From Chlorokybus atmophyticus (taxonomy: Eukaryota > Plantae > Mesostigma and Chlorokybus algae): a stretch of 64,000 bases of DNA. The notes under the pieces are model-generated. The model was not told where the DNA came from and made no database searches. It saw only the letters and a list, made by a program, of their open reading frames with translations. Shown here one piece after another: positions 37,036 through 61,056 of this stretch (positions are counted from its first letter, which is position 1; every line of letters starts with the position of its first letter). The DNA is taken from the NCBI GenBank assembly GCA_009103225.1, contig RHPI01001327.1, forward strand, positions 62,001-126,000, written 5' to 3'. The translations under genes and the position numbers were made by a program.

Positions 37036-37355
37036 TGTAAAGGGAGAATTGCCAATGCCCCCTTTAATCCTCTACCCCAACACCCACGCCAACGACCCTA
37101 CCCATGCCGCCGCCGTACTGTCGTGTCAAGAACCCCCGTTCCTTCACTCACTATCAGCCATAGCTTTGACTAGTTTGGTTGATATCAACCAATTGAGGAA
37201 TAGCGAATATCACCCGTTGGAACTCATAACTTAAATAAGACTCATATAAGGGTCTTAATTAAGCACCAATGGAGCTTGGCATATAATTGACCAATAATGG
37301 TCATATAAAATGATGTCAAGGTGAAAACCTTTTCTAAAGGGAAAAGCCCTTGACA
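37036..37355 (-). repeat. Element D 3' LTR with adjacent polypurine tract
   Basis: TGTAAAGGG...CCCTTGACA termini; C-run 37359-37366 reads GAGGGGGGGGCAA on minus, directly before the LTR. Confidence 0.92.
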
Positions 37356-37524
37356 TTGCCCCCCCCTCAACGAAGGCGGCTCCCGACGCCGTTAGTTGAT
37401 CACTTTAACAGCCGGATCCATTTTAAAAAAGGGACGAGGGTTGCACACTAAACACATGCTGCCTCACGCCCTGTCAGTAGTGCGGTGGGCACACACGTTA
37501 GCGAGAGTTGTAATGCCGAAGAAC

Positions 37525-40500
37525 CTACTGGCAGATTGTCAAGTTCCTTTCAGGCTCCCACGAGTTGTGCTCAACACCATACCCTTTCCACTTGACCAGA
37601 TAAGATGTGCGTCTACGCTTATCCTTTCTATGATCAAGTTTACTCTCCACCTCATATTCCGGGCCCGCACTGTCATTCAAGACAACAGCAGGAGGTGGTG
37701 GTTGAGTCCGTCCATCAGCACGATAGGCCGCAAGGAGGCTCACAGGAAATACATCATGTATCTTTTGCCATCGATGCTAGCAACTCCAACCGGTATGCAA
37801 GTTTGCCAACTCGCTCGCGTACTGCGAACAGTCCTACAAAGCGTGGCATGAGTTTGCAGGTACCCTTTGCTTTGAGTGACAGGTTCTTGGTGTTTAGCAA
37901 CATGTCACCAATTTCAAACTCAACATTACGCTGATGCTTATCAGCATACGCTTTGTATCAATCTTGCGCCGCACGCATGCACTCACGTGCTCGTTGCGTG
38001 CGTGATTGCAATTTAAGTGCAAGATCGCGTGCAACTGGCACCTTATAACTAGGTGGCAATCTCAGATCAGCCACCCCCAATGGGTGTTTGCCATAATTTG
38101 CAAAGAAGGGCGTGTCGTTTATGCTTGCTTGCCACGCGTTAATTGCAAATTCTGCCATTGGTAAGTAGACATCCCAATCGGTTTGATTAGGTGCAACATA
38201 ATGTCACAAAGTCTCTTCCACAATCTGATTGGCACGTTCAGTTTGCCCATCCGTCTGAGGATGAAACGCAGTGCTCATGTGTTAGTCAATGTGCAAGAAG
38301 TCACGCACTGATCTCCAAAACTGAGTCGTAAATTTCGGATCTCTATCCGATACCATGTTGCGTGGCAAACCATGCAAACGGAACACCAAGGAGAGGAACA
38401 GCATAGCTGATTCCCGAGCACCCGTGTCCGTACGGCAAGGAGCTAGGTGAGCCATCTTAGTCAGGCGATTCCCAAACACCACAATCGCTGTATGACTTGA
38501 GGTAGTTTTAGGCAGTGCAGTGATAAGGTCCATGCTGACATTCTCCCAACTGAGCAATGGGATAGGCAATGGCTGTAAAAGGCCGGATGTTCTTTGCCGT
38601 CTCGGCTTGTTGCGCTGACATGCATCGCATGTTGCAACATACCGATTGACATCCACTGTCAACTCGAGCCAATAAAAGCGTCGTTGAGTTGTAGCAGTAG
38701 TCTTGGACCGCCCAAAATGACCAGCATGCGGGGGGTCATGCACAGCAGTGATACACTTAGTGCGCAAGCCATTTTGACCAGGTATGACAAGAGCATTGCC
38801 CTTATACCATAGTCCATCCCGCAATTTAAAGCCCGTCACGCGTTCATGGTTGTTAAACCAAGAGTCACACTTGTACCTCGTCTTAACATGTATTAAGACT
38901 GATATGTCCGGTGTAACAGCGACAACGGCATTGATGTATGCCTCAATGCTGTTGATCATCACCGGTATGCGGCTTAACGGTCCGCCACATTCGTACGACC
39001 AGGACGATTGCACCATTCGAAAACATAACGATACAAAAACTCATTTCAGCGTGCCTGACGACGAGAAAGCATCGGCTAAGTCTAAAAGAATACGGGAGGG
39101 TTGTGGTCTGTTATCACTGTAGAGTATGCCCTCGAGATAGCAATGCCACGTTTTCAGTGCGTGCACCACCCCCAATAGTTCTTGCTCAATAGCGGTATAG
39201 TTCACCTCAGCCGGAATGAACTTGCGAGACTCATACGCACACACACGATCATCTTGCATGAGCACCGCCCCACACCCCAACTTGGAAGCATCACTTATCA
39301 CAGTAAATTGTTTCTTCCAATCCGGCATTGCCAGTACAGGTGTTGATGTTGGTGCACACTTGATCCAGCGCATGGATTCGTCTTGTTTTGCATCCCATGT
39401 AAAGCATTGTCCTTTCCGCAACAATGTTGTCAACGAAAAAAAGTCCAAGTCAATGAACTGTAGCCGAGTATAAAACGTCCAGAGTAGTAGTTAGCCAGGC
39501 CCAAAAATGACATCAGCTCATGATAATTGCGAGGCGTAGGCCAATCTTCCACGACCTTAACTTTAGTAGGATCAGGCTTGATGCCATCAGCACCAACCAT
39601 GTGCCCCAAGTATGGCAACTCCTGCTTACCAAAATTGCATTTGCTGAGGTTGGCAAATAACTTGTGCTTTCGCAACCGCTCAAGAGAGCGATTGTCACAT
39701 GTTGTTGATGTTCATCCAGGTAGACCTTTGCAAACTTGCTAAGCAAGTCGTCAAACACAGCATTATCTCGTCTTGAAAGACTGCGGGTGCGTTGGTCAAA
39801 CGAACGGCAACACCTTGTATTTATAATGGCCAATCGGCGTTCTAAAAGCAGTCTTATGTACATCATCGGGATGCAACCGGATCGAATGATAACCACTAAC
39901 TAAATTGAGTGATGTGAAGTACTTACTCCCCGATAATGAGTCAAGCATGTCATCAATGCGTGGTAAAGGGTACCCATTTTTGACTGTGATCTTGTTTAAT
40001 GCACGATAATCCACACACATGCGTAGCTTCCCGTCTTTCTTTCTCACAAAGAGAATGGGAGAGCCGTATGGGGATTTACTCCGCTGAATTGAACCTTTGG
40101 CCAATAACTCATGATCTGCTTTTCCATTTCCATCCTCTCTACAGGACTTAGCCTACAGGTAGGTCGTGAAGGAGGGGCAGACCCTCGTTCAATAGGAATG
40201 GTGTGACCAATACCTCTATCCGGTGGTAGTTCCGGCAAAGCGTCAGCAAAGACATCGCTGAATGTATTCACCACTTGTTGCATTTCAGGAATGCCATCGA
40301 AAGATGCACGTATATGAGCCAAAGAGGCCATTGATCTGTGCTTGCGATAGCTTGCAGAGCATTCAATAGCCCTGCTGGCTCAGGCAAAGTTTGTCGCAAT
40401 TGCGTGGTGCGCGTAACTTTACGCTTACCTTTGCGTACAGAACATGTTTTCGCATATGTGTCTAGAGTCAGACGCACAGCTTGTTGCCAATCAAGCCCCA

Positions 40501-40760: not shown

Positions 40761-41440
40761 CTATAGTAAGGGAATAAGATGACCATAAAATGCGGCCACA
40801 AGTGCATGGTCACTGTGCGACGGAAGCACCACCAACTTCATATAAGTAGGCATGTCGGTTATCCGCTTGAACTTAGCCACAAGGTGTCCATGTGATGTCC
40901 ATTTGAACCATGAGCCATGATAGCATGGCATGAGGACATACCCTGTGATAGCAAGATGCTGTTTTTGAAACATAGCAAACTCTGCTAAATTAGTTGCTAA
41001 CACACGGATTGACGTTCAAGGACCATGAATGGTCCGTGACGCAGGACCGGGATTTCCCCCTGCTAAATGAAATGGGTGGACCTTGCATGGTCTGTTTTTC
41101 ATCGACAGTCGGACCATTCATGGTCCGAATTTCACGTGAATGATACCATTGTCCCTTGGTACGCACCACTTAAGGTACGGCCGATTACTGTTGCGTCAGG
41201 ACCAGGTATGGTCCGGCTATCGGACCAGGGACTAAATCATATTATTACAATACTTCAATCATAACTGGTCCGGCCAGCGGACCATGGACCGAAATTTATT
41301 ATGGACCAATGTAAATATGAGTGCAAATGCAGTAAAAGTTGAGACATCTTTGCCGGCGGCACCGGCCACGCCCAACCTGCGGCGCACGAGGCCGCGGCCA
41401 GCTCCGCGGCGTTAGTGGAATGATTAGTCAAGAACACACG

Positions 41441-41996: not shown

Positions 41997-44141
41997 TAGT
42001 TTATTGCATGCGCCGACAGCCGCTTGGCGACTGTCGGCCGGCGGCAGTAATTGATTGTGTGTCGCTTTGATAGGCCCATAGGCTGAGCCTATGCAATTGT
42101 AGCATTTATAGGTTGTACCAGTTACATGGACTGTGATAAACTACATGTCGGTAGCCGCGAACTCGGCGGTTGTCAATACGCCAGTACAATTTGTAGACTT
42201 GTTAGGGGCTGTCATTAAGACAATGCTTAGTGATAGTAGCCAAATTGCGACTGTCAATGCAGCCAGTGTACCTTATCGGGCTGTCGATGATTCTGTGGTC
42301 GCATGAGGCTTGTATAGGCCATTTATGAGGTTATACAAGTAAGGCTATAAGTCATAACATCTGACATTGCTTGCGCTTTCGTTTCATACAAATTATTGAA
42401 ATCAATCATACCATAAATTACGCTTAGCAATGCAACATGCGAACAGCATCAACATATGTATTCATGGTATGATGTTAACGGTTGTGAACATTATGATAAT
42501 GTAATAACCAACGAACTATATTTTATGTAATTAACACGCGCAATGCATGCATGTAAATTTAATATAGTTATTATTGTAGACCATGTAATTGTACAGTAAT
42601 CATAACACTTTGTACAATCATATTCTGATACATTACTTACGATGTATATAATTTTGCATATGAAAGGTCTAATGCACATGTGTACGCGCATCAATATACT
42701 TACAACAATGTATGTACATTAAATGATGAATATGAAGTAATTGCACTGCTGCAAATTGCGGCCGCAATACGTCAACAGTTCTTGCTTATATACTTTAAGC
42801 CTATTCCTACATGCACACACACGTATATTTGTCAACATATATATACATATGCATGTTGAAGGTGAGTGAGTGTGGGGAGCAGCATCAAGCTGCCCACATG
42901 TATGTCATGGGCTGTGTGTGTGCTGTTTGGGTTCTGTTTGTGGGCTGCACTGTGTGACTCATGAAAGCCAGGTGGTGGCTTGCTATACTCGTTGGTGCTA
43001 ACGGTCATAAACGGCTATGTGACTCACTAATGCCTGCTGACTATGGCTGCTACTTGGGTCTTTGTGGGTTACTACACAGGTGGGGGTGGTAAGACCGGAC
43101 TACCCTACTTCGCGGCTGGCGGCTGGCAACTTGAGAGCGGGGGCCAGGCAGTTGTCGTCGCAGTCAGAGTCGTGCATGCCACACCCGTCGTGGACCACGC
43201 CGCTCACCTCTCCATCTGCTGCGTCCGTGTCCTCTGCAGGTGGTTACTTCTTATGCCTTCTCATGCCGTTGCCGCCTGAGCTCTGGTACAAGTAGTGTCT
43301 TAGCGTTAGCATGCTGTAGGTGTACAACTCTGCCTTGGCCCCCGCCTAATTTGTTGCCTTGTGTTTGGTTTCTGGAATTTGCTTGAGCTTGTGTGAGCTT
43401 GTGTGAGCTTGCATCTTTCACAAACATTCTTTGAGCGTGCCTAGCGCAGCTCTTATGTGATCTATGTATACATATATATATGTGTATATATACACATATA
43501 TTTATATGTATACACATATCCATTTATACATATATAGGCCACAAGTGGACAGCCGCAACTGGTCGGCAGCTGTCCACTTGTGTTAAGTTAAAATGTACAT
43601 GGACAGCCGGCTGTCAACATACATTGACAGCCGCCGACCATTTGCGACTGTCCACTTTATGGTAAGCGGCGACAGTCGGTGCGGCCTGTCATTTACTAAA
43701 TGATGATACACACAATGTATATATATATATATATATATATATACCTATGTACTCGTACATGCAATAAGTATACTTCAGGCATGGTACACGTGTAGCGCGC
43801 CCTGCAGGGCCGCCAACCAGCAACATTGCTGGTCCATGCCGCCCCATACATGGTGCGGCACGGACCATGTACGGTGCGCGGCTGCCGGGCCGCTGAGGCG
43901 CGGGCCCACTCCTGGTCGCATCCAGGAACCAGCGTAGAGTACTGGTCCGTGCCGCACCATACAAGGTGCGGCACGGACCATATGTGGTGCGCGACTGCGC
44001 GCCAGTTGTTGGGGCCCCAAAAGGACCATGGACGGTCCGTCCCTCGCGGACCAGACACTCGTGGTCCACGGGGACGGACCATGTATGGCCCGCGGGGTCC
44101 GTGGAAGGACCATGCATGGTCCCCGAACGTCAATCCGTGTG

Positions 44142-45084
44142 TAAGTCAGCTGGTTTGCACGAAAGTAACACACGCGCATCATGCACTGGTTCATCACGCC
44201 GCATTACAGGCAACATATCATGATCAATCCAAGCATGTGTAACACCATGTGTACGTAAAATAGATGTCATGTCTAAACCAATGTCTCTTGGCACAGTGGC
44301 CATGGCTAATCCCTACGGCTGCTGCTGAATCTTCTGGCCTTTGCCCTTGCCCATCTTTTGAGACGCAGAGGCCTTTAGCTCAGGGTGCAGCTGCCAACAA
44401 CGATTTGCCGTGTGACCAGGTTTCCTGCAAGAAGCACAAGTAACTTTTTGCTTATCACAGACACCGCAGCTGTATCCTTAGGATAAGTTGCTTTGGTAAA
44501 TCATGAAAATGGTCAAGACTGATGACAGCCTTGATGTACTCATCCAGATCCTTAGGCCCCCGCACAATGTTGTCCCCTCTCAGCTGCAAGCTGGTAACGA
44601 GATCCTTGCGTAATCCACTACGAAAGGAGTGCATCTGTGCAGCCGCATCGTTCGGAAGTGGTCCTTGGTTGAACTTCATCAACCAACAGGCGCCACTCGC
44701 GCGCATACACATCAGCACTCTTGTTGCCCATTCAAAGTTGGCCCAATTTCTCATCTGCTTCCACCCAAGGCGCAACACTCTGGTAGTGACTGCACATGTA
44801 GTCCAGCAGTGCTTGCATGGTACTGGCAAAGTTGCCCTTCTTATGCTGCATCTGCAACTCAATTGCTGCCAAATTGAGAACAATGTTCAACTGTTGACTG
44901 TTGAACTGTTGAACTTGTCCTCCTCTGACATGTCATTGGCTAACGCCAACCAGTTGTTGATGGACACGATCCACTTCATACTAGTCTTCTTCTCAGTGGT
45001 ATCAAACTTGAATGGCTTGACCAATGCCATCTTGGCACTGGCAGACATACTGCTTGTGGCGGGTGCAGAGCGCAATGTCGTCAC
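44142..45084 (-). pseudogene. Element D gag with zinc knuckle and start of the extra domain (disrupted)
   Basis: KPFKFD..KWIVSINNW, FRSGLRKDL (retrotransposon gag-like); CASCRKPGHTANRC knuckle at 44438-44397. Confidence 0.8.
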
Positions 45085-47113: not shown

Positions 47114-47435
47114 TATAATTTGCAACGAACGCTTCGCCTCCCCCACAGAGTAAGGGTTGACTGCAGAGAAAGCGTTCTTGCTTGGTAAGCTCAAAGAGAA
47201 TGGCCCCTTCAGTCTCATCTTGTGGGTTAATTGTATCCTCCATTTGCCCCTCTACTTGCGTAGCGGTAAGCGGGGATTTTTAGTGCCCTGAGATGTCTTT
47301 TCTGACTTGCCTTTTGCCATGTCTGAACACAGCAATACAGCTTGTAAGAACGAAGCTGTGTAAGCAAAAAGAGTTGTGCAAGCAAAGCTTGCAACAACAA
47401 CCAACAACAATTGTTGGTTGTTGTTACAAGCTTTG

Positions 47436-48708
47436 CACACGGGTTGACGTTGAAGGACCATGCATGGTCCTTTTATGAACCCCGCGGCCCATGCATGGTC
47501 CGTACCTTGCGGGCCAGGACTGCCTGGTCCGCGGAGGACGGAACGTATGTGGTCCGTTCGGGGCCCCGCGGCCCGTCAGGCGACGCGCATCACGCATGGT
47601 CCGTGCCGCACCATGAATGGTGCGGCACGGACCAGTAATGTACGCTGTACTTGACTGCGGACCAGGTGCGGTCCCGCGGTCCTGTGGCCTACTAGCGCGC
47701 ACCGTACATGCTGCCGCACGGTCCGTGCCGCATAATGTACGGTGCGGCACGGACCAGTAATCGCGGCCCTGCCGCTATCATGAGTAACAACAACCTACGT
47801 GAGGTACAGTATTGCCTAAATGCCTGATTGCACAAGTGCACTTAACTTGTTGACAAGCCGCACCGACTGTCGGCTATACACAGTGGACAGCCGCAAGTGG
47901 ATAGCAAATGGTCGGCGGCTGATTGACAGCCGGCCGGCTGTCAATTAAGCTGTAAGGAGCTGTCTATGCAATCAACATACTTCATAATACCGTAAGTGTA
48001 TTTGCAAAACTTGTGACCATGCACCATTAACATGTTCTATGCGTTTATCTAAGTATTATATCTATTGTCTAATAGATATACATATTTTAGCGTGTGCACA
48101 AATGGATCTATTTTTATACGCTTACGCAGGTCTACATGGTTATAACAGCAGTATTTTGGGTCAACCGTATACAAGGTATGTTGCATATAATAATATACAT
48201 AAAAAGTATACATGATTTACGTCACTTGTCACTACTAGCCTCTCATAAGACCGCAAATGACTGACAGCCCAATCTGAGCATTGTGTTCAACCAGCCAGTT
48301 AACATCTACGTTGGTGCCGCAATGCGACTTTAATATTTATATTATGTAAACACATATATATACACATTCACTGCACTTTGCCTGCAACAAAATCTGATGC
48401 TTATGAATAAATATTGCGGTCGATGGTCCGCTAGCCGGACCAAGAATGATTGTTAAGTATATTTTCATAATTAAGTCCCTAGTCCGCTGGCTGGCTCGTA
48501 CCTGATCCTGACGCTACCGAAAACCGGCTGAACCAGACATGGTGCGACCCCAAAAAAACATGGGACCGTCCACGTGAGGTTTGGACCATGCATGGTCCCA
48601 CTGTCAATGACAGCCGGACCATACATGATCCACCAATTTCACTAAGCAGGGCAACATCCCGGCCCGAAGGCACGGACCATTCATGGTCCTGTAACGTCAA
48701 GCGGTGTG
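47436..48708. mobile_element. Element B, shorter inverted relative of element A
   Basis: CACACGGGTTGACGTT..GGACCATGCATGGTCC left end and ..AACGTCAAGCGGTGTG right end; its left arm resembles the reverse complement of A's right arm and vice versa; no TSD (TTG / CAA). Confidence 0.8.
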
Positions 48709-49987
48709 CAAGTCTTATGCCTGGGGCTGCTCGTGTTGTGAAATTGAGTGTAATGCCACTCGAAGAATGGTGTTAACATGCAGAGTTGCTGCTTGATGTA
48801 GCCATCTGGCAATAGACGTTAACAACATTGTTGTTGCATGCTTTGCATTGGGTGTATCGACGTTGCTCAGCTCGTACAAATTTGGCAGTAGAGAGCAGCC
48901 GTTGAGCTGCTCATCCTCAGAGGGATAACACAGCACGGTCAGCCCGGTCACTAGTTCAACGGGACTGATCGAACGGTTGCACTCAGACAAGTGTCGCGCG
49001 CGCACAGCCGTCCGTTTGTGGTCATAAATGGACGGCTGATGGGCGACCATGTCGGTTCGCGCGAGCCCCCTAGGCCCTTAGGGTTGGGTGGGTGGGTCAA
49101 ACAGCGCTCAGAGCAACAAATGTAAGCGCCTGGGGCGCTGTAAACAACAACAACAACAACAACGACGACGGCGGGGTGTCATGCCTATCGCCCGGGCATG
49201 CCAGTCGTCATCGGGCATGCCTACAGCGAGACCCTCGCCCGGCTTACTAGCATGGCGACCCGCGCGCGTCACTGACCAGTTGCTAGGTCATGTCTCTAGA
49301 GTAGCTCATGATCATAGCCTACATAGGCACCGCGCTATTCAGTTGTGAGTTCAGTTATAAGTTGGGTTCTATATCGAGTGGGGATTTCCTGTGAAAATAG
49401 CCTCGATATGACCGGTAGCTTATGTTCTGGACAGTCATGAGTTGACTTGTATAAGTAGGCACAGTGTTCACCGGATCAGCTGGTGACACTGTAAGTGAGA
49501 AAGCTAAGAGCTTGTGAAGCGACTTGAACTACGAAACACGCCGTCCCGGTTGCCCAGAATCCCCTCACCGTGTGAGAGCCTGTGCATATTCTTGTGCACT
49601 GTGCTTGTACTTGTTGTGAGCTTGGTGTACTTGGTCGCGGGGTGCTTGTTGGCATCAGTCAGGGCATAGCATCCACGTGTTGCTTGCTCATTCACCTCAC
49701 TTAACAGTGTAATTTCTCTTCCACTCATGCAAAGAACTGTGTAAACAGCACTACCTATAGTAGTGGCTTGTTGACTTAAAGTGTCACCCTCTTTGCTCAA
49801 GTGAGTGTAGCTGCAGGCTGCACATCAGCATCGCAATCTGTAGTTGTACACATCGCAGTGCATTGTTGTCACCGTCATCGCATAGCGCGCACAAGCGCTA
49901 GTGTGTTGGGTGATAGCAGCACTAGAGATCCCATTGTAGAGCACAAACACTCTACCCTTCATCCACTTTCACCATCGCATCAGCTGT

Positions 49988-51454
49988 ATGAGCAGGCCCA
50001 CCCCCTTCTCGCCAATAGAAGAAGGGAACCTCAACAGCTGGAGCCCAACCTCCAACCTTACCTACGAGCGCGCAAGTGAAGGGAGAGATTACCGTAGCAG
50101 CAGAGGCTCACGCCCCGTCTCCGACTTCACCTCCTCTCACTCCACTCCTCGACAACGAGCATCTCCACCACTGTCAGACAGTGACGACGAGGAGATGGAG
50201 CCTTCCAGCTCAACCAACTCCCTACGCTTCTCCGGACGCCCTGGCACCACCTCACTTGACGAGTTCATCATCAAGTTCCACTCCAAGATGAGGCAGCAAG
50301 CCCTCAAGAGCAAGGACTGGACAGATGAGGTATTGTTTCATATGTCCGCTCAATACCTTGATCACGAAGCACATGATGTGTGGAAGTCCGTCGCTGAGTT
50401 GCACAAGATTAATGGCTATGGCGAATTAGCCAGCACAATATCCTCCACGTCACTGCATAGCCCATCGGTTACTGTTCCTGTAGCAGCGGCCCCGCCAGCC
50501 TCAGTCACGGGTCTCACTCTAGCTGCAGCCAGAGAAGGCAGAGAATGAAGAAGTTGAGGTGGTAGTGGCCTCATTGACTCCGGCAGAGGTCGAAAGCAAG
50601 AAGGCCGAGCGCCGGATCAAGATACTCAACCGCACCGCTGCCATCATCAGGGAGCAACAAGAGGAGCAGCAAGCTGCAGCATTTAAAAATGGGTACGGCC
50701 CTGCTACCAACACCAAACTCGCGTGCTCCAGCAAGAAGCAGTGTTTTCACCCTCGGCTCAGTGGCATTGCGTGCACCCGCGCTTACAATGGGCGCGGCCA
50801 TGTCGGACTCCCCGTTGAAGGACCTCTACGCCGCACTCCGGCGCACCTTCCCACCTCAAACCAACAGCAAGGTGGAGGAGTTGAGGCGTTTTTTACGGAA
50901 GCCCAACGAGGACCCTCTCCGACTGTATTCACGGTTGGAAGGGTTGCTTAAAGACACTGACTACAAGATCGTCAGTGAGGAGGCGGCAGCAGTGGTGTAT
51001 GTGGAGTTGGATCCCACACGGAGTGAGTCAACGCGCCTGACGCTGAACTACAGCAGGCCCCTCGGCTTACCCTCAAGGAAGCTTTCGAGACTGCACAAGT
51101 CATCCATAAGCGCGCAGTGTATGAGAAAGCGGTGCTGGACACCAACCGCAGTGCCTCGCGGCCTATGGCAAGCACGAGTGCAGAGCCTCTTCGGCGGGAC
51201 CGCAGCCGAGAGCCGCAAGGCATCCACAACAAGGATACACGGTCAGCTCATGCTGCCCTTGTGGCTGCAGTGCTGTGCCACCGGTGTGGTCGACATGGCC
51301 ACTACCAAAAAGAGTGCACCGAAGATTACGGCAACCTTGTGTGCGACTACTGCCACAAGACGGGACACTTGGAGACAGTATGCTGGCTCAAGTTCTCTGA
51401 GCTGCGGCCCTCTATTGGCTACAACAACGGCAACAACGCTGTTAGCTACCGCGG

Positions 51455-51486
<32 letters not shown>

Positions 51487-52229
51487 ACAACGGGGGCTAC
51501 AACAACAGCAACCGCGCTGGCGGCTACAACAACAGCAACAACGCTGGTGGTCGCAACAATGGCAACAACGCTGGTGGCCACAACCCCAACAACAACAACA
51601 ACGCTGGGGCCCGCAAGGAGAAAGCTGGCTACAGAGGGAAAAACCGCCCTCCACAGCACAAAGGACCTGAGGGACGTCCTCGCGCTGGAGCTGCTGCTGC
51701 AAAGGCACCAACCAATCCACCAGCTATTGACCAAGTGACAGCTCTGATGGCGCGCGTGGCACATCTGGAGGAGCACAAGGAGCAGGACTATCAAGCCTGC
51801 TATGCTGCTAGGGAAGCTGGCGCGTCGTCAACAGCGGCATCGTCGGACGCCACAAGTGGTGCTGCCTCGGCATCTACAACCACTGCTGGGACGACGCCGT
51901 CGACGACACCGTCGGCGTCCACACCGACCACGACAGCAGGTGCCAGCACTCTTGGCACCACGCTGTCCCCGGTGATGGAAAGCACCCACGCCGCAACAAC
52001 CATGGTCGTTTGGTTCGTGGGTGGTGAATCCACCACTCCAGCCTCCATCGAAGCGATCACATCGGCCGCAACTGCTGCCACCCTCAAAGCCGCCACCTCA
52101 GTAACGACGACTGCTGCAGGTGCCACCACCATTGCCTCCGGTAGTGCTGCCGCACCCACTGCACCACTTCCTGAGATTCGAACGGCACCGCCACCAGCAC
52201 TTGACGTCACACAGCAAGTGCCACGCTGA
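49988..52229 (+). pseudogene. Element E gag with two CCHC zinc knuckles and an Asn/Gly-rich tract (frameshifted)
   Basis: FSGRPGTTSLDEFI..; CHRCGRHGHYQKEC and CDYCHKTGHLETVC; (AAC)n tract at about 51420-51600. Confidence 0.85.
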
Positions 52230-52268
52230 CCACAAGCAGAACGCGCCTGGGCGTCGGTTCTACGCAAC

Positions 52269-54800
52269 GTGGAGCCCACCACCATTGCGTACGGACCAGG
52301 GGGGCAACGTACCACGCGTGTGGCACGCGATGATCGCATCTTGCCCCTACCACCTTCAGAGTACCACACGCTGCCGGAACCCACACAACAGCAGATGGAG
52401 GATGAAATCCTCGCCGGCACTGCACCAGAGATGAGGGGTCGTCTCTTCGGGGTCACCTATCGGAGACCTGCAGTATTAGAGCTGGCCATTCAGTTGTTCT
52501 TGGCATTACACGCACGGTTGCAGGGCGCACCCAGTCAAACGCGGCAACCCATGCCCGCTCTGCAGATCGACTTCAAGCCCTCACCACTGGACCCACTCGG
52601 ACTCCAGCGCCACAAAATACAAGACCTCGTGGTCACCATGACGGACATCGCGCTGGGCACTGATCCCGCTCTCCGGGGGCTCACTCCAGGCAGCCGTCGA
52701 GAGCGATTTTTTGCCCTCGAACAGGCACATCAATATCAGGTGGACCAAGCTGCCCAAGTGGACGCGCGCCGACAGGCGTACGAAGCAGCACACGCCGTTA
52801 TCGTACCAACCGTAGCTCCGATAAATGTTGCCAGCGCCTCCACGACGCTGACCACAGGGTACTCCACGGCAGTCGCCATCGAACAACCAAGACAAGCAAC
52901 TGTTGCAGACCAAGCGAGGGCGTTGGCGCAACAATCGAGGGGGGTAATCGCCCCGCTGCTGCCTCCTTTGGTCGAAGACATGCCTGAGGATCAACGCGAT
53001 GCAGGGCGAGGGTACCTCACCCCGCAAGGGGACACCACACAACGAGGAGGAGCTGGTATGGTGGGGGAGCAACAACTCAGTACCGCACTCATCCGGCAAG
53101 CAGTCATGATGCACAGGCCTGAGGGCAACACATTAAGACAGATGATGGGGATGCGAGAGGGCAGCGCCGCTCGAGCCCGGCTCGTGACATGGCTCGTTGC
53201 CAATCACCCTGCTGTCCCCATGTTTGCCTTTGGCAACCGAGCATCATGGTTGGGGGCATTCGTTCGTTCGCTGCGACAAGCATACGACGAGGCTGCCACC
53301 ACAGCCCCGGACACGCTGGAGGGAGTGCAAGAGGCAATGCTGCGGTTGCCAGGGGTGGAAGCCGTACGACAACGGCGGCGCATCGCCATTGCTCATGAGC
53401 TACACGCACAGCAGACTGACCTCCAGCGCACCCTACACGCGCGCGCCATGACCGTGCTCGATGTGGGAGTGGTACAAGGAAGGTGGGATGCCTACATGGC
53501 AGGGATCTTGCGAGTCCCCACCATCACTCACGACATGCGGCGACAGCTACTACGCGCCGTATACCTGCAGCCCATGCCTCAATATCATCATTGGACCAAC
53601 ACTGACACCGAGCCCACGGCCACGTGGGAAGGGACGTTGGTCAGAGAAGCGGCTCATGCTGTCCGATGGACGTACGCCGCGGAGCAAGAGGAACGCGAGG
53701 CAGGCCCACAAACACCGGGTCCGCCGGGGTTTCCTCCACAGCCATTGGGTACACCCGCGGGCATGATTCCATCTTCGCAAAGGCAGCATCCACTTGCGCC
53801 GCCCCCACAATCGGCGCCGGAACCTCCAGCACCGAGGCCCCCCCGTGTCTACCAACCACCACGACAAGGTCGGTTCGGCAGAGGGCAAGGAGGGGGTTCT
53901 TCGGACCCAGCAGGCAGAGGAGCTCTGGCTGCCATGCGCTCAGCACCCCCAGCTGAGAGAACTAAGGCAAAGGTGCAGACAGCTCGTATGAGGAGGCTGC
54001 GCATCAACGCCAATGCTGCCATGGTGGCCAACCAAGGCAAGCACATTACTATTAACAGCCTGGCACCCAAGCGGGTGATGTTGGACACCGGAGCACAGCC
54101 TGTCATCATCGGGCGCTCCCTCGGCATAACCAGCTCCGACTTGGTGCCTTGCCCGTACGTGTTGGACACTGCCACAGGTAGCCGAGATAAGGTGATGGGA
54201 GTCACCAGGGAGGCCTTTTGCATTCGGTTGACCGGGCTGGACCTCACCCACACAACCAAGATCGTCCAGCAATATGTAGTCACCAATGCCGGCTCCTTCG
54301 ACTTTCTGCTTAGGCAGGACTTCAACTTTGCTGTGGGCATGGGCCTCTACTGCTGGACAGAGCAGGCGTGGTTTCGGCCACATTGGGATGAGGATGACGG
54401 AAAGGTGCAGGGTTTTCTGCCTCTCGAGTTGGTCTCGCGCACGCGCGCCCAGCGCAAAGTGGCTGCCGTGGCCACACGCAGCCACGCCCGCACACGGGAG
54501 TCTGCAACGGCCACATACGACGGCGCTTGGACGCAAGCCGCTACTGGTGCCACGGCCCCGTGTCGAACCATTGACTCTTCTCCCACCCAGTACAACGAGG
54601 AGCAAAAGGATGCCACCGTGGAAGTAGCATTGCAAGACCCAGCTGAACAGCGCTGGCGCGCACAGGTGGACGCACATGTCTTGCTCAGCCATCCACTGAT
54701 CACCACGCGCTTCCCCAACTACCTAAGCCACAACAAGGTGCAGGACCGCCATATGGTGGCCACCGGAGTGGTGGAGTGCCACACCTTTCGCAGACAACAG
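52269..54800 (+). CDS. Element E polyprotein segment: long unassigned region followed by the aspartic protease
   Basis: Open for 873 aa; VMLDTGAQPVIIG protease motif near 54075. Confidence 0.75.
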
Positions 54801-56230
54801 GGCATCACAGTGTTGGAGCTGTTTGGAGGCATTGGCAGCGGTCTTGCCGCGGTTCTCAACACGGGTGTGAAGGTTGTCAAATACTATTGACCCAGACCCA
54901 CACGCGCAAACGGTCCTCAAACACCACTTACGCCAACTGCACGAAAGGTATTCACGTCAACTACCCCTCTCGGCGTTGCAAGGCAGCCTTAAAGCATTGC
55001 CACAAGACATCCGGCTAATCACCGAAGATCACCTACTGTCCCTCGGCAACGTCGACCTATTAATAGCTGGGTGGGAATGCCAAGGGCACTCCAGGGCAGG
55101 CAAGGGGCAAGGCCTCGAACACCCTCGCTCAGGGCTGTTTTGGGAGCTCATGAGAATCATCACCTCCTTCAACACCACCAGATCTCCAGACCCCTGGGGT
55201 ACGTCATCGAAAATGTGCATTCAGAGGACGACAAGCGTCCGCACGTGGCCTCCAGCTACTAACAAGTTGTTGAAGGTATTACATGGGTGATGCTTGTATC
55301 CGGTTAGCTTGCCCTTCATACAGGAGTCGAGGGTCGAAGGTACCAAAAAGAAGCGCGTGGACTCCAGACTTAGCAAGACGGTCGAGTCATGACGGACTCC
55401 GGACCAGGCTACTTGGTAGAGCCTTGGGAGAAATCGCGTAGCTTTGTGAATACGTAAGCTTAGCAGGCGTGGCTTAACTTGTTGGAAAGCTCTGGTTGTG
55501 AGCTAGACAGCGTAGCTTACAGAACAGCAATCGGCTGAGTATAGCGCACGCGGTGCTTGCCCATGTAGACGTGTGTAGAGACTGGCGGGGTATAAAGCCC
55601 AGACTTGTTGCAATGAAGAAAAGAGGTCACGATGTAGCATGTGTGCGGATGCTATGGCGGCAGTAGCAGTCATGCTCTTGTGTTGATGTTGTTGGCGTGT
55701 CACTTGTACGTGTGTATGTCAACACAAGTTTGCTTCATTCTGGGGCACCCACTTAAGGTGAACGCGGCACGACATGGCTCGCGCGCACATCGTGTACGTG
55801 CCAAGTGGACAAATTTGGCCACCGTGGAGGAACTCATGACCGCAGAATACACGCGCAGCGCTCGGCCGCGCAACCTGCTGGTCGATGACATCCTTGACCC
55901 CGGCCGCAAAGCACAACATGTCCTGCGTCATGACCACAACCACTTCTACCCGTGCAATCAGCCCGGTCAGCCCCGTCGCGCACTCCCCACATTGGTGTCC
56001 TACCCGGGCTCCTACGCATTTTGAAACGGTGGTGACGGGATGGTGTTTGATGCGACCACTAACAGGCTGGAGAAACTCAACGCACGCGAACGTGAACGCG
56101 CCATGGGATTCTTCCACAACAGCATCACGGGTTCATCGCTGACAGATAGTCAGCAATGCCAGCTGCTTGGCCGCGCCATGGACCAGAACATCATGGTATG
56201 GCTGCTGGAGCTGAGCTTCGCGTTGCAGGA
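54800..56230 (+). pseudogene. Element E Dnmt3-like C5 cytosine methyltransferase domain, split by a solo LTR
   Basis: Motif I VLELFGGIGSG (about 54810); IV DLLIAGWECQGHS (Cys 55078-55080); VI YVIENV (55209); VIII GSRAHRVRAKWTNL (about 55790); IX ERERAMGF (about 56090); X QLLGRAMDQNIM (about 56165). Confidence 0.9.
55268..55724. mobile_element. Solo LTR (457 bp) inserted in the methyltransferase domain
   Basis: TGTTGA...TCAACA termini; TSD CAAGT at 55263-55267 and 55725-55729; removing it joins motif VI to motif VIII in frame, apart from one TAA. Confidence 0.9.
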
Positions 56231-56439
56231 CCGCCACGTGTCCTTCGAAGATCTCGAACACTTGGCTGGGGGGTGGGCTGATCGCGTAGCCGACACCAAG
56301 GCAGCTCACACAGCCCTCGAGGTGGTCCACATGGAGGAGCAAGCAGCAGTGACAGTGGAGGACATTCCCGTGGTTGCCAATGCAACCTCCTGGGACCATG
56401 CCATTGGCCCGTTGGCCACAGAAGACACTGGAGAGAAGC

Positions 56440-57830
56440 TGGAGGCTCTCCTCACCAAATGGAGGAGCCAATTCAGCTTCAATGTGAAGGAATTGGGTAC
56501 ATGTTCAGTGTACCAGATGGACATCGAGCTGGTGGACACTGAGCCGGTGTTCCGGCGGCAATACAGGCTCTCCAAGTTGGAAGAGGACTTGGTGGAACAG
56601 AGATGTAAGGCGCTGCTTGATGCAGGCCTTATCGAAGAGTCCACATCGAACTTCGCAGCAGCAACCGTCATGCCACTGAAGAAGGATTTAGCAGGCAGTT
56701 GGACAGAGCGACGCATGTGTGGCGACTATCGCCCCCTCAACAACAAGACCAAGCAAGACAGGTACCCCATGCCCACAGCAGAGGGTATCTTTGATGATGT
56801 GGGAAACTGCACAGTCTTCAGCATCCTGGACATGCGTCAATGGTACAACCAAATCGCCATCAAGGACGAGGACAAGCACAAGACCTCCTTCTGAGGCAAT
56901 CGACAGTTGTACCAATTGAAGGTAATGCCGTTCGGGCTGAAGAATGCCCCCGCCAAGTTCAACGCGTCATGGACAAGGCCTTGAAGGGGCTGGACTGCGC
57001 GCGGTGCTACATCGATAACATCTTCATTTTCAGCCGCAGCAACGAGGAGCATCTTCAGCACATTGAAGCGGTGCTGGAACGACTCAAGGGAGTGGGGATG
57101 ACCGTACACCCCGTCAAGTGTACCTTCTTCACCCACAAGGTGCCGTACTTAGGGCACATGATTGTGCCCCATGGTGTGTATGTGCAGCAGGCAAAAGTAG
57201 AGGCTCTGGCAGCTATCCACGCCCCGACAGACCTCACACGTCTGCGCGCTTTCTTGGGACTTGCCAACTACTATCGCCGGTTCGTGAAGGACTTCGCGAA
57301 GATCGCAAGGCCCCTCAACGAGCTACTGAAGAAGGAGGTGGAGTTCGCATGGAAGGAGCCGCAACAGCAGGCCTTCGAGGAGCTGAAGAGCAGGCTCACC
57401 ACCGCTCCCATCCTTCAACGTCCGGACTACGCCAAGCCTTTCATCCTTCACACCGATTGGAGCAAGCTGGGGATGGGAGCGGTGCTGGTGCAGCACGATG
57501 AGAACAAGAAGGAGCGGGTGGTTTCATACGCCAGCCGAAGCAACAACAGCGTCGGGGCCAACTACAGCAGCTACGAAGGGGAGTGCCTCGCTGCAGTGTG
57601 GGCCATCTCCTTCTTCCGACCTTTCCTTTTTGGTCGGCGGTTCCAACTGATCACCGATCATCAGCCCCTCAAGTGGCTGATGACCAACCAACATCTGACA
57701 GGGAAACTTGCTCGATGGGCCCTGCTGTTGCAGGAATACGACTTTAAGATCGACCACCGCGCCGGCCTCACCAACCAAGACGCCGATAGCCTCAGTCGCA
57801 ACCCTCACCTCAGCACCAACGACGCAACTG
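56440..57830 (+). pseudogene. Element E reverse transcriptase and RNase H
   Basis: RMCGDYRPLN, ILDMRQWYNQI, MPFGLKNAP, YIDN (YxDD mutated), FILHTDWSKLGMGAVL, YEGECLAAVWAI, ITDHQPL; stop at 56892. Confidence 0.93.
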
Positions 57831-58119
57831 GAGCTCGGCATGAGCTCGTGCGTGCAGCAACAGCCCCCACCTTGGCAGCCATGTTTGCTGCTGCCGCGTT
57901 GCGCTCAAGGCGCAAGACCAACACCACGGCCTCAGCAGTGGCAGAGGAAATTCCTGCCTTTGAGCCTACCGGCCCTGCGGCAACCACACCCTTGAGAGAC
58001 GCCACGCAGCCGACATTGACGTCGATAACACAGAGCTGGCGCCCACTGACATCAGGCAGGACATATGGCAGGACAAGCCATCACTCTCCTTTCTTCAAAG
58101 TGGCCAGCTTCCCTCCAGC

Positions 58120-59527
58120 ATGAGCGCCCGAGAGAAGAACCGAGTCAACCAACGCACCCGTCACTATCGATGGGCAGGTGACAAGCTGTATCGCCGCTTC
58201 CACGACGAGGACAAGGAAGTGCCGACAACGGTCACGCGCGAGGGCATCATCACTTCCCTCCACACTGAGCTTGGGCACTTCAGTGTCAAGCGTACAGTCA
58301 GCCTAGTGAGGGCACAATATTGGTGGTATGGGTTAACAAAACAGGTGCAGGGGTTCGTCAGCCATTGCCATCAGTGTGACATGGTGCGCGCCAGCCTCAA
58401 CACGCGTAGCGCTACCTTGCACCCACTCCCCATCTCCGGTCTTTTTTACCGATGGGGGCTCGACATCTTGGGGGACTTGGCACCCTCAGCGCGTGGCAAC
58501 CGTTACATCCTGGTGGTGGATGATCGAGCACTTCTCCAAATGGGTGGAGCTGGTACCGTTACCCGACAAGAGCAGCAGGGGGGTATCTCAAGCCTTCCTC
58601 TCTCACGTTCTCAGCCGATTTGGCAGCTGTGCCAAGGTCATCACTGACCAAGATACTGAGTTCAGAGGGGAATTCGACACCCTCTTGGACAAATGTTACA
58701 TCGACCACCGCCGTACCTCGCGTGATCACCCTCAAGCCGACGGCCTCGTCGAGCGTACAGTACAGACCATCAAGAAGGCACTCCGCAAGTACGTGCTGGA
58801 GTACGACAAGAACACTTGGGATGACCACCTCCCGTGGGTGGCCCTCGGATATCGATTGTCAAACCAGGCGGCTCTGCGGGAGTACAGCCCGTACTACTTG
58901 CTGTTCGGGCGACCACCATTGCTCCCCTTCCGTGCGCAGCAGGAGGTGGATCGCGTCGTGAACAACCTCGACGACCCTGACTGGATGCACCACAACATCA
59001 CCACGCGCGCCGCGCTTTTCAAGCGTACCGTCCCCATGGTCTTCAACAACCTGCGCATCGCGCAGCATCGTGACACGCTGCGCTACGAGCGCGTACGCAG
59101 CGGCTACTACAAGGAGCGCCAACGGCGGTTCCAAGCGGGGGACTTTGCCTATCGCATGGCAGCCACCAAAGACACGCTTGACACCTCCGTAGGTTGCACC
59201 GTCCACAAGGTACTCAAAGTGTACCCCACAGGGGTGCTGGACCTCCTTGGTCAAAACGGAGAGAGGTTGAAGGACAACATGGTGAACTGTGCGCCATGTC
59301 ACCTTCCTTACGTAGCCGGCTTCGGGCGTATCCAGCACCCTCGTCCCGCGCGCAGCACACGCTGTGAACGCTGCGGCAGCGCCGGCGACGACGCACTCAT
59401 GATGCTCTGCGATGGCTGCAACAAGGGCCTGCATTGCTACTGCCTGGAGCCACCTTTGGACGCGATACCTATGGAGGAGCATTGGTGCGACGATTGCCGT
59501 ACCAACGGCCCTCCTCACTTGCGCTAG
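58120..59527 (+). pseudogene. Element E DDE integrase with a C-terminal PHD finger
   Basis: HTELGHF..CHQC zinc domain; WGLDILG, TDQDTEF, DGLVERT core; PHD CERC..MMLCDGCNKGLHCYCLEPPL..WCDDC at about 59360-59500. Confidence 0.93.
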
Positions 59528-59577
59528 CAGCTGAGCTCTGGAGCTGGAACCTCCCCCAGAACCCAGGGGGGGTGGCT

Positions 59578-60297
59578 TGTTGACTTTGTGTGCTACAGCA
59601 CAGCATGTACACTAGGGAGAACACCGACTCCACCTGCCCGGTCTACCCAGCAGCAGCAGACCAGCTGCACAAAGCACTTGTCACCATGAGGGTTGGGGTC
59701 ATCTTTTGTTTTTGCTGCGCGTTACACAGGTGGCGCAGCAGCATGTCCAGCAAGCATGGCTGTCCATGCAGCTGTCCGAGACAGCGTGACCTTCGACTCC
59801 CCTCGACCCGACAGGGGAGGTCGCCCTGCTGGAGGTTATGGAGAGGGAGGCCGTACAAGGCTGGCCTTTAGCTGCCATGAAGCAGCCAGAGCCAGCTCAG
59901 CGGGCTAGCTCTTCAGCGGCGGCGGAGGCAGCTGTCACATTGCCGTTGAGCCAGCCTGGGCGGCAGGGAGGTGAGCTCTTGTGCGGTCTTTTAGCATGCC
60001 GCACTTCTAGTGCTGCATGTGTACGTGCTCAGCTCCTCAACGGCTAAGTTGATGAAGAGCGGTAGGCCCATTGCGCTGCTCAGCCAACGGGCAGGCTGCT
60101 CATCATGCTTAAACATGTGAGTGAGTGCTGTCACCTATTGCGATGCAAAGCAAAGCAACTTAATAATGACTAAGTGCTTTACTGCAGCGCAAGGAATATT
60201 TGAGACTCCCTCAATTATTGAGAGGATTATGTCAAAAGGCTCTCTTTGCTATTAATTGTGCACAAATACGCGCACAATGCACGCGAGCCAGTCAACA
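59578..60297 (+). repeat. Putative 3' LTR of element E (720 bp) preceded by a PPT
   Basis: AGGGGGGG at 59565-59572; TGTTGACT...AGTCAACA 8-bp inverted termini; no second copy found in the window. Confidence 0.65.
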
Positions 60298-60704: not shown

Positions 60705-61051
60705 GCTCCGATACCAAATGTGAAGGGAGAAATGTTAACTCCCCCTTTAATCCTCTACCCCAACACCCACGCCAACGACCCTACCCATGCCGCCGCCGTG
60801 ACTGTCGTGTTAAGAACCCCCGTTCCCTCACTGACTATCAGACATAGCTTTTACCAGTTTGGTTGATATCAATCGATTAGGGTAAGAATCGCGGATATCA
60901 CCTGTTGGGACTCGTGACTCAACTAACAATCATATAAGGGTCTTAATTAAGCATGGAGCGAGGAACCAATGGAGCTTGGCATATAACTGATCAATTAAGG
61001 TCATATAAAATGTCAAAGTGAAAACCTTCTTTAAGGGAAAAGCCCTTGACA
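60705..61051 (-). repeat. Element D 5' LTR plus initiator-Met-type primer binding site
   Basis: LTR 60719-61051 is homologous to 37036-37355; TGGTATCGGAGC on minus at 60716-60705, 2 nt from the LTR end. Confidence 0.92.
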
Positions 61052-61056
61052 CTTGC

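Follow-up and report, generated by a model that had tools for sequence, protein, structure and literature searches.

A decayed Ty3/gypsy retrotransposon with a Dnmt3-like methyltransferase domain and a PHD finger in the alga Chlorokybus atmophyticus

KnitGypsy-Dnmt3 of Klebsormidium nitens is described, in the available parts of de Mendoza 2018 (PMC5890265), as a Gypsy retrotransposon with a Dnmt3-like DNA methyltransferase (DNMT) in Pol and with DIRS-like split repeats. The same parts of that paper present, from Symbiodinium, SymbioDIRS-Dnmt3, which likewise has a Dnmt3-like DNMT in Pol and repeats in the order A-coding-B-A-B, and for which de novo CG methylation was shown in yeast and methylation of the complementary DNA (cDNA) was proposed, together with SymbioLINE-Dnmt, another retroelement-borne DNMT. 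The accessible portions of two further reports (PMC12344493 and bioRxiv 10.64898/2026.05.21.726589) name the family for streptophytes, the second as Gypsy-DNMT3; the second also covers the EpiLTRs of Cymbomonas and Euglena, long terminal repeat (LTR) elements in which a histone reader and a cytosine methyltransferase occur together. Gypsy elements bearing a PHD finger are known in Chlamydomonas (accessible parts of PMC9940879 and PMC6673714), fusions of readers to transposons are common according to the part of 10.1101/2021.11.30.470311 that was available, and the corresponding parts of PMC6338049, PMC12477816 and PMC11982613 held nothing decisive. Here we describe a Ty3/gypsy element that carries both a Dnmt3-like DNMT and a PHD finger, found in a stretch of 64,000 nucleotides of Chlorokybus atmophyticus (contig RHPI01001327.1, positions 62,001 to 126,000; hereafter the window).

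The element occupies 49177-59813 on the forward strand, as do all its parts for which a strand can be given, and has the domain order gag, protease (PR), DNMT, reverse transcriptase (RT), RNase H (RH), integrase (IN) and PHD finger. The PR-RT-RH-IN order, the TG...CA ends (TGTCATG and CCCGACA), the 4-bp target-site duplication (GGGG at 49173-49176 on the left and 59814-59817 on the right) and the polypurine tract (PPT, a G-run at 59566-59572 similar to the run in relatives) are those of a Ty3/gypsy element. No pair of whole LTRs and no long direct repeat flanking the element was found in the window. There are instead two halves of a split terminal repeat, giving the layout A-coding-B only: repeat A at 49177-49762, which starts with TGTCATG as in relatives, and repeat B at 59573-59813, which directly follows the G-run and ends in CGACA as in relatives. 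Contig depth is elevated across 49117-59958, including repeat A, and one contig of the window's own family reads a B-to-A junction (run X2). Run X1 placed 1518 contigs on the stretch at 80-100% likeness, which points to a family with many diverged copies; depth of this kind is not a copy number.

The copy in the window is an ordinary fossil. The first-pass annotation of this DNA had called it dead on account of a YIDN motif, stops and frameshifts, the latter near 54885 and 55175, and this was borne out: there are stops at 55259, 56022 and 56892, frame changes near 54885, at 55165-55190, near 56950, between 57845 and 58050 and near 58519, and YIDN at 57008-57019, a codon position at which contigs of sister copies differ from the window copy.

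The same annotation had suggested that the architecture might define a new family, which does not hold. In Klebsormidium nitens, KFL_013780020 is CCHC-PR-DNMT and KFL_015960010 is IN-PHD, and the two are linked by contig L031 (DNMT tail-RT-RH-IN-PHD), which is 93% identical to KFL_015960010 in IN-PHD and 73% identical to KFL_013780020 in the DNMT tail, giving the domain order seen in the window. We infer that these sequences correspond to KnitGypsy-Dnmt3 of de Mendoza 2018. The window element shares with that kind an intronless, unrearranged Dnmt3-related DNMT within a Gypsy Pol; the RT tree places it and the K. nitens element in one line of descent, L031 standing in for the latter; and its relatives have the A-coding-B-A-B repeats of which the window copy retains A-coding-B. 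By sequence comparison it is a member of KnitGypsy-Dnmt3 / Gypsy-DNMT3. It differs from the K. nitens sequences in several respects: its DNMT is only 35% identical to that of KFL_013780020 (and 45% to that of the open-frame relative P0262), its motif IV reads GWECQ and not GFPCQ, it lacks the stop codon found there between DNMT and RT, and it has an additional open stretch of 580 codons before the protease. The text and supplements examined of PMC5890265 do not mention a PHD finger; Fig. 4c of that paper may already draw one.

The other described systems are more distant. SymbioDIRS-Dnmt3 and SymbioLINE-Dnmt, as far as PMC5890265 was available, have a tyrosine recombinase or a LINE endonuclease where the window element has a DDE integrase, and represent independent captures. 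EpiLTRs, according to the accessible part of the bioRxiv report, combine a chromodomain with an adenine methyltransferase and a DNMT4-sister domain, in contrast to the PHD finger and Dnmt3-like domain alone of the window element; no Pfam match to a chromodomain or an adenine methyltransferase was found in the open reading frames (ORFs) of the window or in P0262. Gypsy-7a_cRei, compared by description only, is a Gypsy element whose PHD finger has been suggested to bias where it inserts and which shows a 2.6-fold preference for intergenic sites, but the part of PMC9940879 available to us lists no DNMT in the relevant legend.

The DNMT domain lies in pieces at 54801-56231. All six C5 methyltransferase motifs proposed by the first-pass annotation could be located, in order, between the protease motif (54081-54098) and the start of RT near 56496: I at 54810-54842, IV at 55060-55092, VI at 55200-55217, VIII at 55785-55817, IX at 56088-56111 and X at 56163-56183. 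The Pfam comparison that it had recommended bears out both domains, with E 7.1e-11 to PF00145 for the piece carrying motif IV (54871-55200) and E 2.6e-7 to PF00628 for the last ORF; the other DNMT pieces, searched singly (three in one scan and two in another), gave no Pfam match. With X placed at each break, the whole domain reaches 337 bits on a profile built from 52 relatives, the window row excluded, compared with at most 1.2 bits for the reversed sequence and the best of 200 shuffles, a score that is not fully independent because the relatives were picked by BLASTP with the same read-through. The domain is interrupted by a 457-bp solo-LTR-like piece at 55268-55724 with TG...CA ends and a 5-bp duplication (55263-67 and 55725-29). 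The insertion is real, as announced, but its supposed span of 55268-55729 had included one copy of the duplication. Sister copies lack this insert, its site being bridged by contigs from both run X1 and run X2.

The relatives match DNMT3A/B/C first, both by sequence and by fold, in agreement with the original Dnmt3-like assignment. A relative with Pro-Cys in motif IV (PC type) has DNMT3A/3C/3B on top among solved structures (E 6e-8), and the predicted fold of a relative with Glu-Cys (EC type; pLDDT 96) superimposes on DNMT3A/3B with E 1e-18 and TMq 0.70, the model being alignment-based, whereas single-sequence folding gave pLDDT 33. In the alignment of 52 relatives, from which 13 shorter hits were dropped, 49 retain the catalytic Cys, 49 the Glu of motif VI and 49 both Arg of motif VIII. 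The residue before the catalytic Cys, on which the first-pass annotation had not remarked, is less constant: the window has Glu rather than Pro while retaining the Cys, as do 35 of the 52 aligned relatives, and among 150 representatives there are 73 with Glu, 49 with Pro, 12 with another residue and 16 in which the motif is unreadable.

We then consider how widely this arrangement occurs. A search with IN-PHD found 158 near-length and 113 longer relatives, including sequences from Klebsormidium nitens, Calypogeia, Marchantia, Haematococcus, Chromochloris, Tetrabaena and Pleodorina; among the 113 longer ones a DNMT was matched in 61 by BLASTP and in 67 by profile. A DNMT search added proteins from Marchantia and Closterium, a transcript-derived protein of Coleochaete is RT-RH-IN-PHD, and no relative was found among viral contigs. 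The library of representatives comprises 267 clusters (50% identity, E up to 1e-30). Where the first-pass annotation had proposed a search of the genome for intact copies, sequence libraries yielded open-frame relatives, of which P0262 has the same order and motif IV as the window in a single open frame. Of 80 metagenome loci, 30 have at least 1.5 kb upstream of RT, the other 50 being too short or deleted; in these 30 the DNMT stands before RT in 27, after RH in two and is missing from one. Most are contigs of low GC content with an integrase 80-84% like that of Calypogeia. The recurrence in open-frame relatives and in the 27 loci confirms that the DNMT is a feature of the family and not a one-off insertion.

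A second layout, RT-RH-DNMT-IN-PHD, occurs in Haematococcus and, decayed, in Tetrabaena, and is a separate clade on the RT-RH tree (FastTree support, as for all values here, 0.94, or 0.998 with L031). The window element groups with Coleochaete, Marchantia and the metagenome locus L007, sister to the Klebsormidium-type clade (0.955, or 0.85 without L031). On the DNMT tree, which did not include the K. nitens DNMT, the window and all domains that precede RT form one clade with support 1.0. Since the two layouts form separate clades on both trees, the DNMT seems, from these sequences, to have been inherited with the element and to have moved once. The range in relatives is, judged from the same sequences, one of Marchantia, Closterium and chlorophytes, the last with DNMT between RH and IN. 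We note that the Marchantia 'hypothetical proteins' P0250, P0252, P0256 and P0257 (Mp4g09160, MARPO_0091s0058, MARPO_0008s0049 and Mp6g11220) are gag-PR-DNMT parts of the family, several with the PC of motif IV intact, and that one member of the P0129 cluster is labelled uncultured cyanobacterium in NCBI, probably through a binning error.

The PHD finger at 59363-59497 ends the integrase and is a full one, as had been read from the letters, with C4HC3 spacing and 31 bits against a Pfam cut-off of 24. Its best matches among solved structures are KMT2C/D, UHRF1/2, ATXR5, WSTF and BAZ2A/B. At least 158 of 176 matched PHD fingers have Gly at what we take to be the position of the methyl-lysine cage Trp; this position and the specificities of the matched fingers are our working assumptions. 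The lack of the cage Trp predicts binding to unmodified H3. REM1 of Chlamydomonas, compared by description only, is reportedly also a Gypsy element whose PHD finger is proposed to bias insertion.

The terminal repeats of the relatives have the layout A-coding-PPT-B-NN-A-B, with the full A-coding-B-A-B arrangement present in six loci (L015, L055, L059, L062, L063 and L065). A G-run of at least six follows the PHD ORF in 56 of the 80 related loci, and of the 63 loci that extend far enough downstream, 34 show the junction CGACA-NN-TGTCATG, one case being spurious. This junction is a near-palindrome; in 28 of the 34 the spacer reads GC, GT or AC, GT and AC being single-deamination products of GC; the outer ends of the relatives have no spacer. 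By manual count, the two copies of B, the first of which adjoins the PPT, begin at an identical base in 28 of 33 rows (of the remainder, two are misaligned and three share another seam), and the A side of the seam varies by a few bases. The palindromic B-A junction is internal, to the right of the seam defined by the PPT, which suggests that the integrase cuts a circular cDNA. Plus-strand synthesis primed at the PPT would define the LTR as B-NN-A; the cDNA ends would then join to give a circle, and the integrase would cut the internal palindromic B-A junction. A two-LTR circle cut at one junction would yield A-coding-B-NN-A-B, and a one-LTR circle, or recombination of B by B, would yield the A-coding-B form of the window.

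The right limit of repeat A is approximate, being placed from an exact 15-nt match between 49763-49777, at the end of A, and 59572-59586, at the start of B. The match lies at the expected primer-binding site, and none like it was seen by eye in six low-GC relatives. Inspection by eye of the sequence after A in the window and six relatives revealed no TGG-type primer-binding site, no tRNA comparison having been run. One contig reads the empty site (joint 51603->59814, read by eye). The insertion target (48775-49172 plus 59814-60111) is itself a repeat, as indicated by a contig that joins 60111 to 48775 and also reads the empty site (runs X1, X2); this joint was considered as a B-A junction and rejected for the same reason.

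In two sublineages the DNMT is followed by an in-frame stop codon, in the frame shared with RT, at L007:5083-5091 (TAG-CAG-TTA) and L031:210-215 (TGA-CGG). We assume that these contexts match read-through signals. The end point of L007 is shared by 15 other clusters, and that of L031 by KFL_013780020. A read-through stop would make the DNMT as abundant as Gag. A stop of this kind was looked for in the DNMT-RT linker of the window and rejected, the frame being open there. The stop between the DNMT and RT-RH-IN-PHD makes it unlikely that the two modules act as one fused enzyme in the K. nitens-type and L007-type elements.

Subscription papers and Repbase lay outside the coverage of our literature search, which found no paper on PHD and DNMT3 in one Gypsy element, on bryophyte (Marchantia) or chlorophyte members, including those with DNMT between RH and IN, or on the leaky-looking stop in two sublineages. 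No paper turned up on a catalytic EC variant, at which no search was aimed, or on circle integration in the family, which was probed only through split direct repeats.

The domain order, family membership, fold, retention of catalytic residues, split repeats, target duplication and decay of the copy are directly supported. To account for them we favour, as probable, an old green-plant Ty3/gypsy lineage whose active members methylate their new cDNA with a packed Dnmt3-like enzyme, whose PHD finger binds unmodified H3 tails, and which inserts by way of circular cDNA. The protease would free the DNMT inside the particle, where cDNA is the nearest substrate, and the PHD finger would stay on the integrase and steer insertion away from H3K4me3 promoters. 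A more specific version, to which we give limited credence, is a circle-integrating lineage spread across green plants in which the DDE integrase cuts an LTR-internal palindrome after a co-packaged Glu-Cys Dnmt3-like enzyme has methylated the cDNA, with the PHD finger targeting H3K4-unmethylated chromatin.

Several observations weigh against the favoured account. Circle integration and self-methylation are proposed from sequence comparison; several of the repeat rows are one insertion in different assemblies; 4-bp target duplications were found in only three of the six related loci with both ends found; and the deep nodes of the trees are weakly supported. The window PHD finger lacks an Asp three residues before the first Cys that is present in many relatives. 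In the window copy no stop separates the DNMT from RT, and among the 27 loci with DNMT before RT only L007 shows the CARYYA context. The canonical Pro is replaced by Glu in the window copy and in 73 of the 150 representatives. Open-frame members without a DNMT (P0151, P0155, P0175 and P0157) and locus L056, which has no trace of one, imply that the domain is dispensable in some lines. Finally, no methylation was seen in yeast with the DNMT domain of K. nitens, a result that its authors regard as inconclusive in the available parts of the paper (PMC5890265). The ratio of observed to expected CpG, 0.80 in the element and 0.69-0.81 in host genes, is uninformative on self-methylation.

An alternative that we judge unlikely is that DNMT and PHD work jointly on chromatin, as do the catalytic domain and ADD finger of Dnmt3, and, once in the nucleus, methylate the target site or related copies instead of cDNA inside the particle. 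The chlorophyte-type layout, which sets the enzyme directly before the integrase, would suit this, as would the resemblance of the PHD finger to readers of unmodified H3, whose specificity we presume. In the window-type layout, however, RT and RH intervene, with a stop codon as well in the K. nitens and L007 types, and the PHD finger is retained where the DNMT has been lost.

It is also improbable, in our view, that the DNMT is weak or non-catalytic and is kept to bind DNA or S-adenosylmethionine, or as a decoy for host silencing factors. The inactivity of the K. nitens domain in yeast, the loss of the domain in some lines and the replacement of Pro by Glu in about half of the family, with several switches on the tree, would fit such a role. 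On the other hand, human DNMT3B likewise failed in the same yeast assay (PMC5890265, available parts), the Cys, motif VI Glu and motif VIII Arg residues are conserved in 49 of 52 relatives at an overall identity of about 35-45%, and the EC type is predicted to retain the DNMT3 fold. A one-off chimera, with one dead element having acquired part of a host DNMT or PHD gene by capture or through an assembly error, might be suspected in so badly broken a copy, but it is refuted by contigs of other copies, which cover the DNMT region at a depth like that of the rest of the element, by the same order in open-frame relatives and 27 loci, and by the separation of the two layouts on both the RT and DNMT trees.

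Among the remaining coding parts of the element, the frame-broken gag (49991-51440) matches PF00098 with E 8.6e-4 and, weakly by BLASTP, the gag ends of P0251, P0237, P0262 and P0398; it contains two CCHC knuckles (51276-51317 and 51342-51383). The 580-codon stretch between gag and protease (52230-53969) has a weak Pfam match far under the cut-off and no BLASTP match among the fetched proteins of relatives, and an atlas search with 52230-53729 found nothing. The aspartic protease (54045-54390, with LDTGAQ at 54081-54098) matches PF13650 with E 0.006, under the cut-off, and is 35% identical to the P0262 protease, which itself passes PF13650. RT and RNase H (56496-57799; PF00078, PF17917 and PF17919) are broken by the stop at 56892 and the frame change near 56950. 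The integrase (58060-59310) has an HHCC zinc finger (PF17921, E 1.1e-14) and a DDE core (PF00665, E 1e-3), with D near 58462, D near 58649 and E near 58751, and a frame change near 58519.

Elsewhere in the window, LTR-like repeats at 37036-37359 and 60719-61056 are 84% identical and 23.7 kb apart, and are accompanied by the remnant of a gypsy integrase zinc finger (38282-39040, reverse strand); they belong to a separate, older element. Nested long inverted repeats, about 75% alike (41001-41300 with 48406-48708, and 43825-44144 with 47433-47761), suggest decayed DNA transposons. The neighbouring genes resemble plastid FtsH, TrpRS, AlaRS and BMS1, labels given by reading without a family scan; together with the nearest named relatives of the element, which are streptophytes, they point to a streptophyte alga as the probable host.

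The single Gypsy-borne methyltransferase domain tested showed no activity in yeast. The many open-frame relatives, of EC and PC types and in two layouts, some of them in the genetic model Marchantia polymorpha, bear on why retrotransposons carry cytosine methyltransferases, as they make cDNA methylation, PHD specificity and circle integration testable. Insertion of a Gypsy element by way of a circle junction would differ from the linear-end route of the textbooks. On the more specific version given limited credence above, the element would already be methylated when it reached a chromatin state chosen beforehand.

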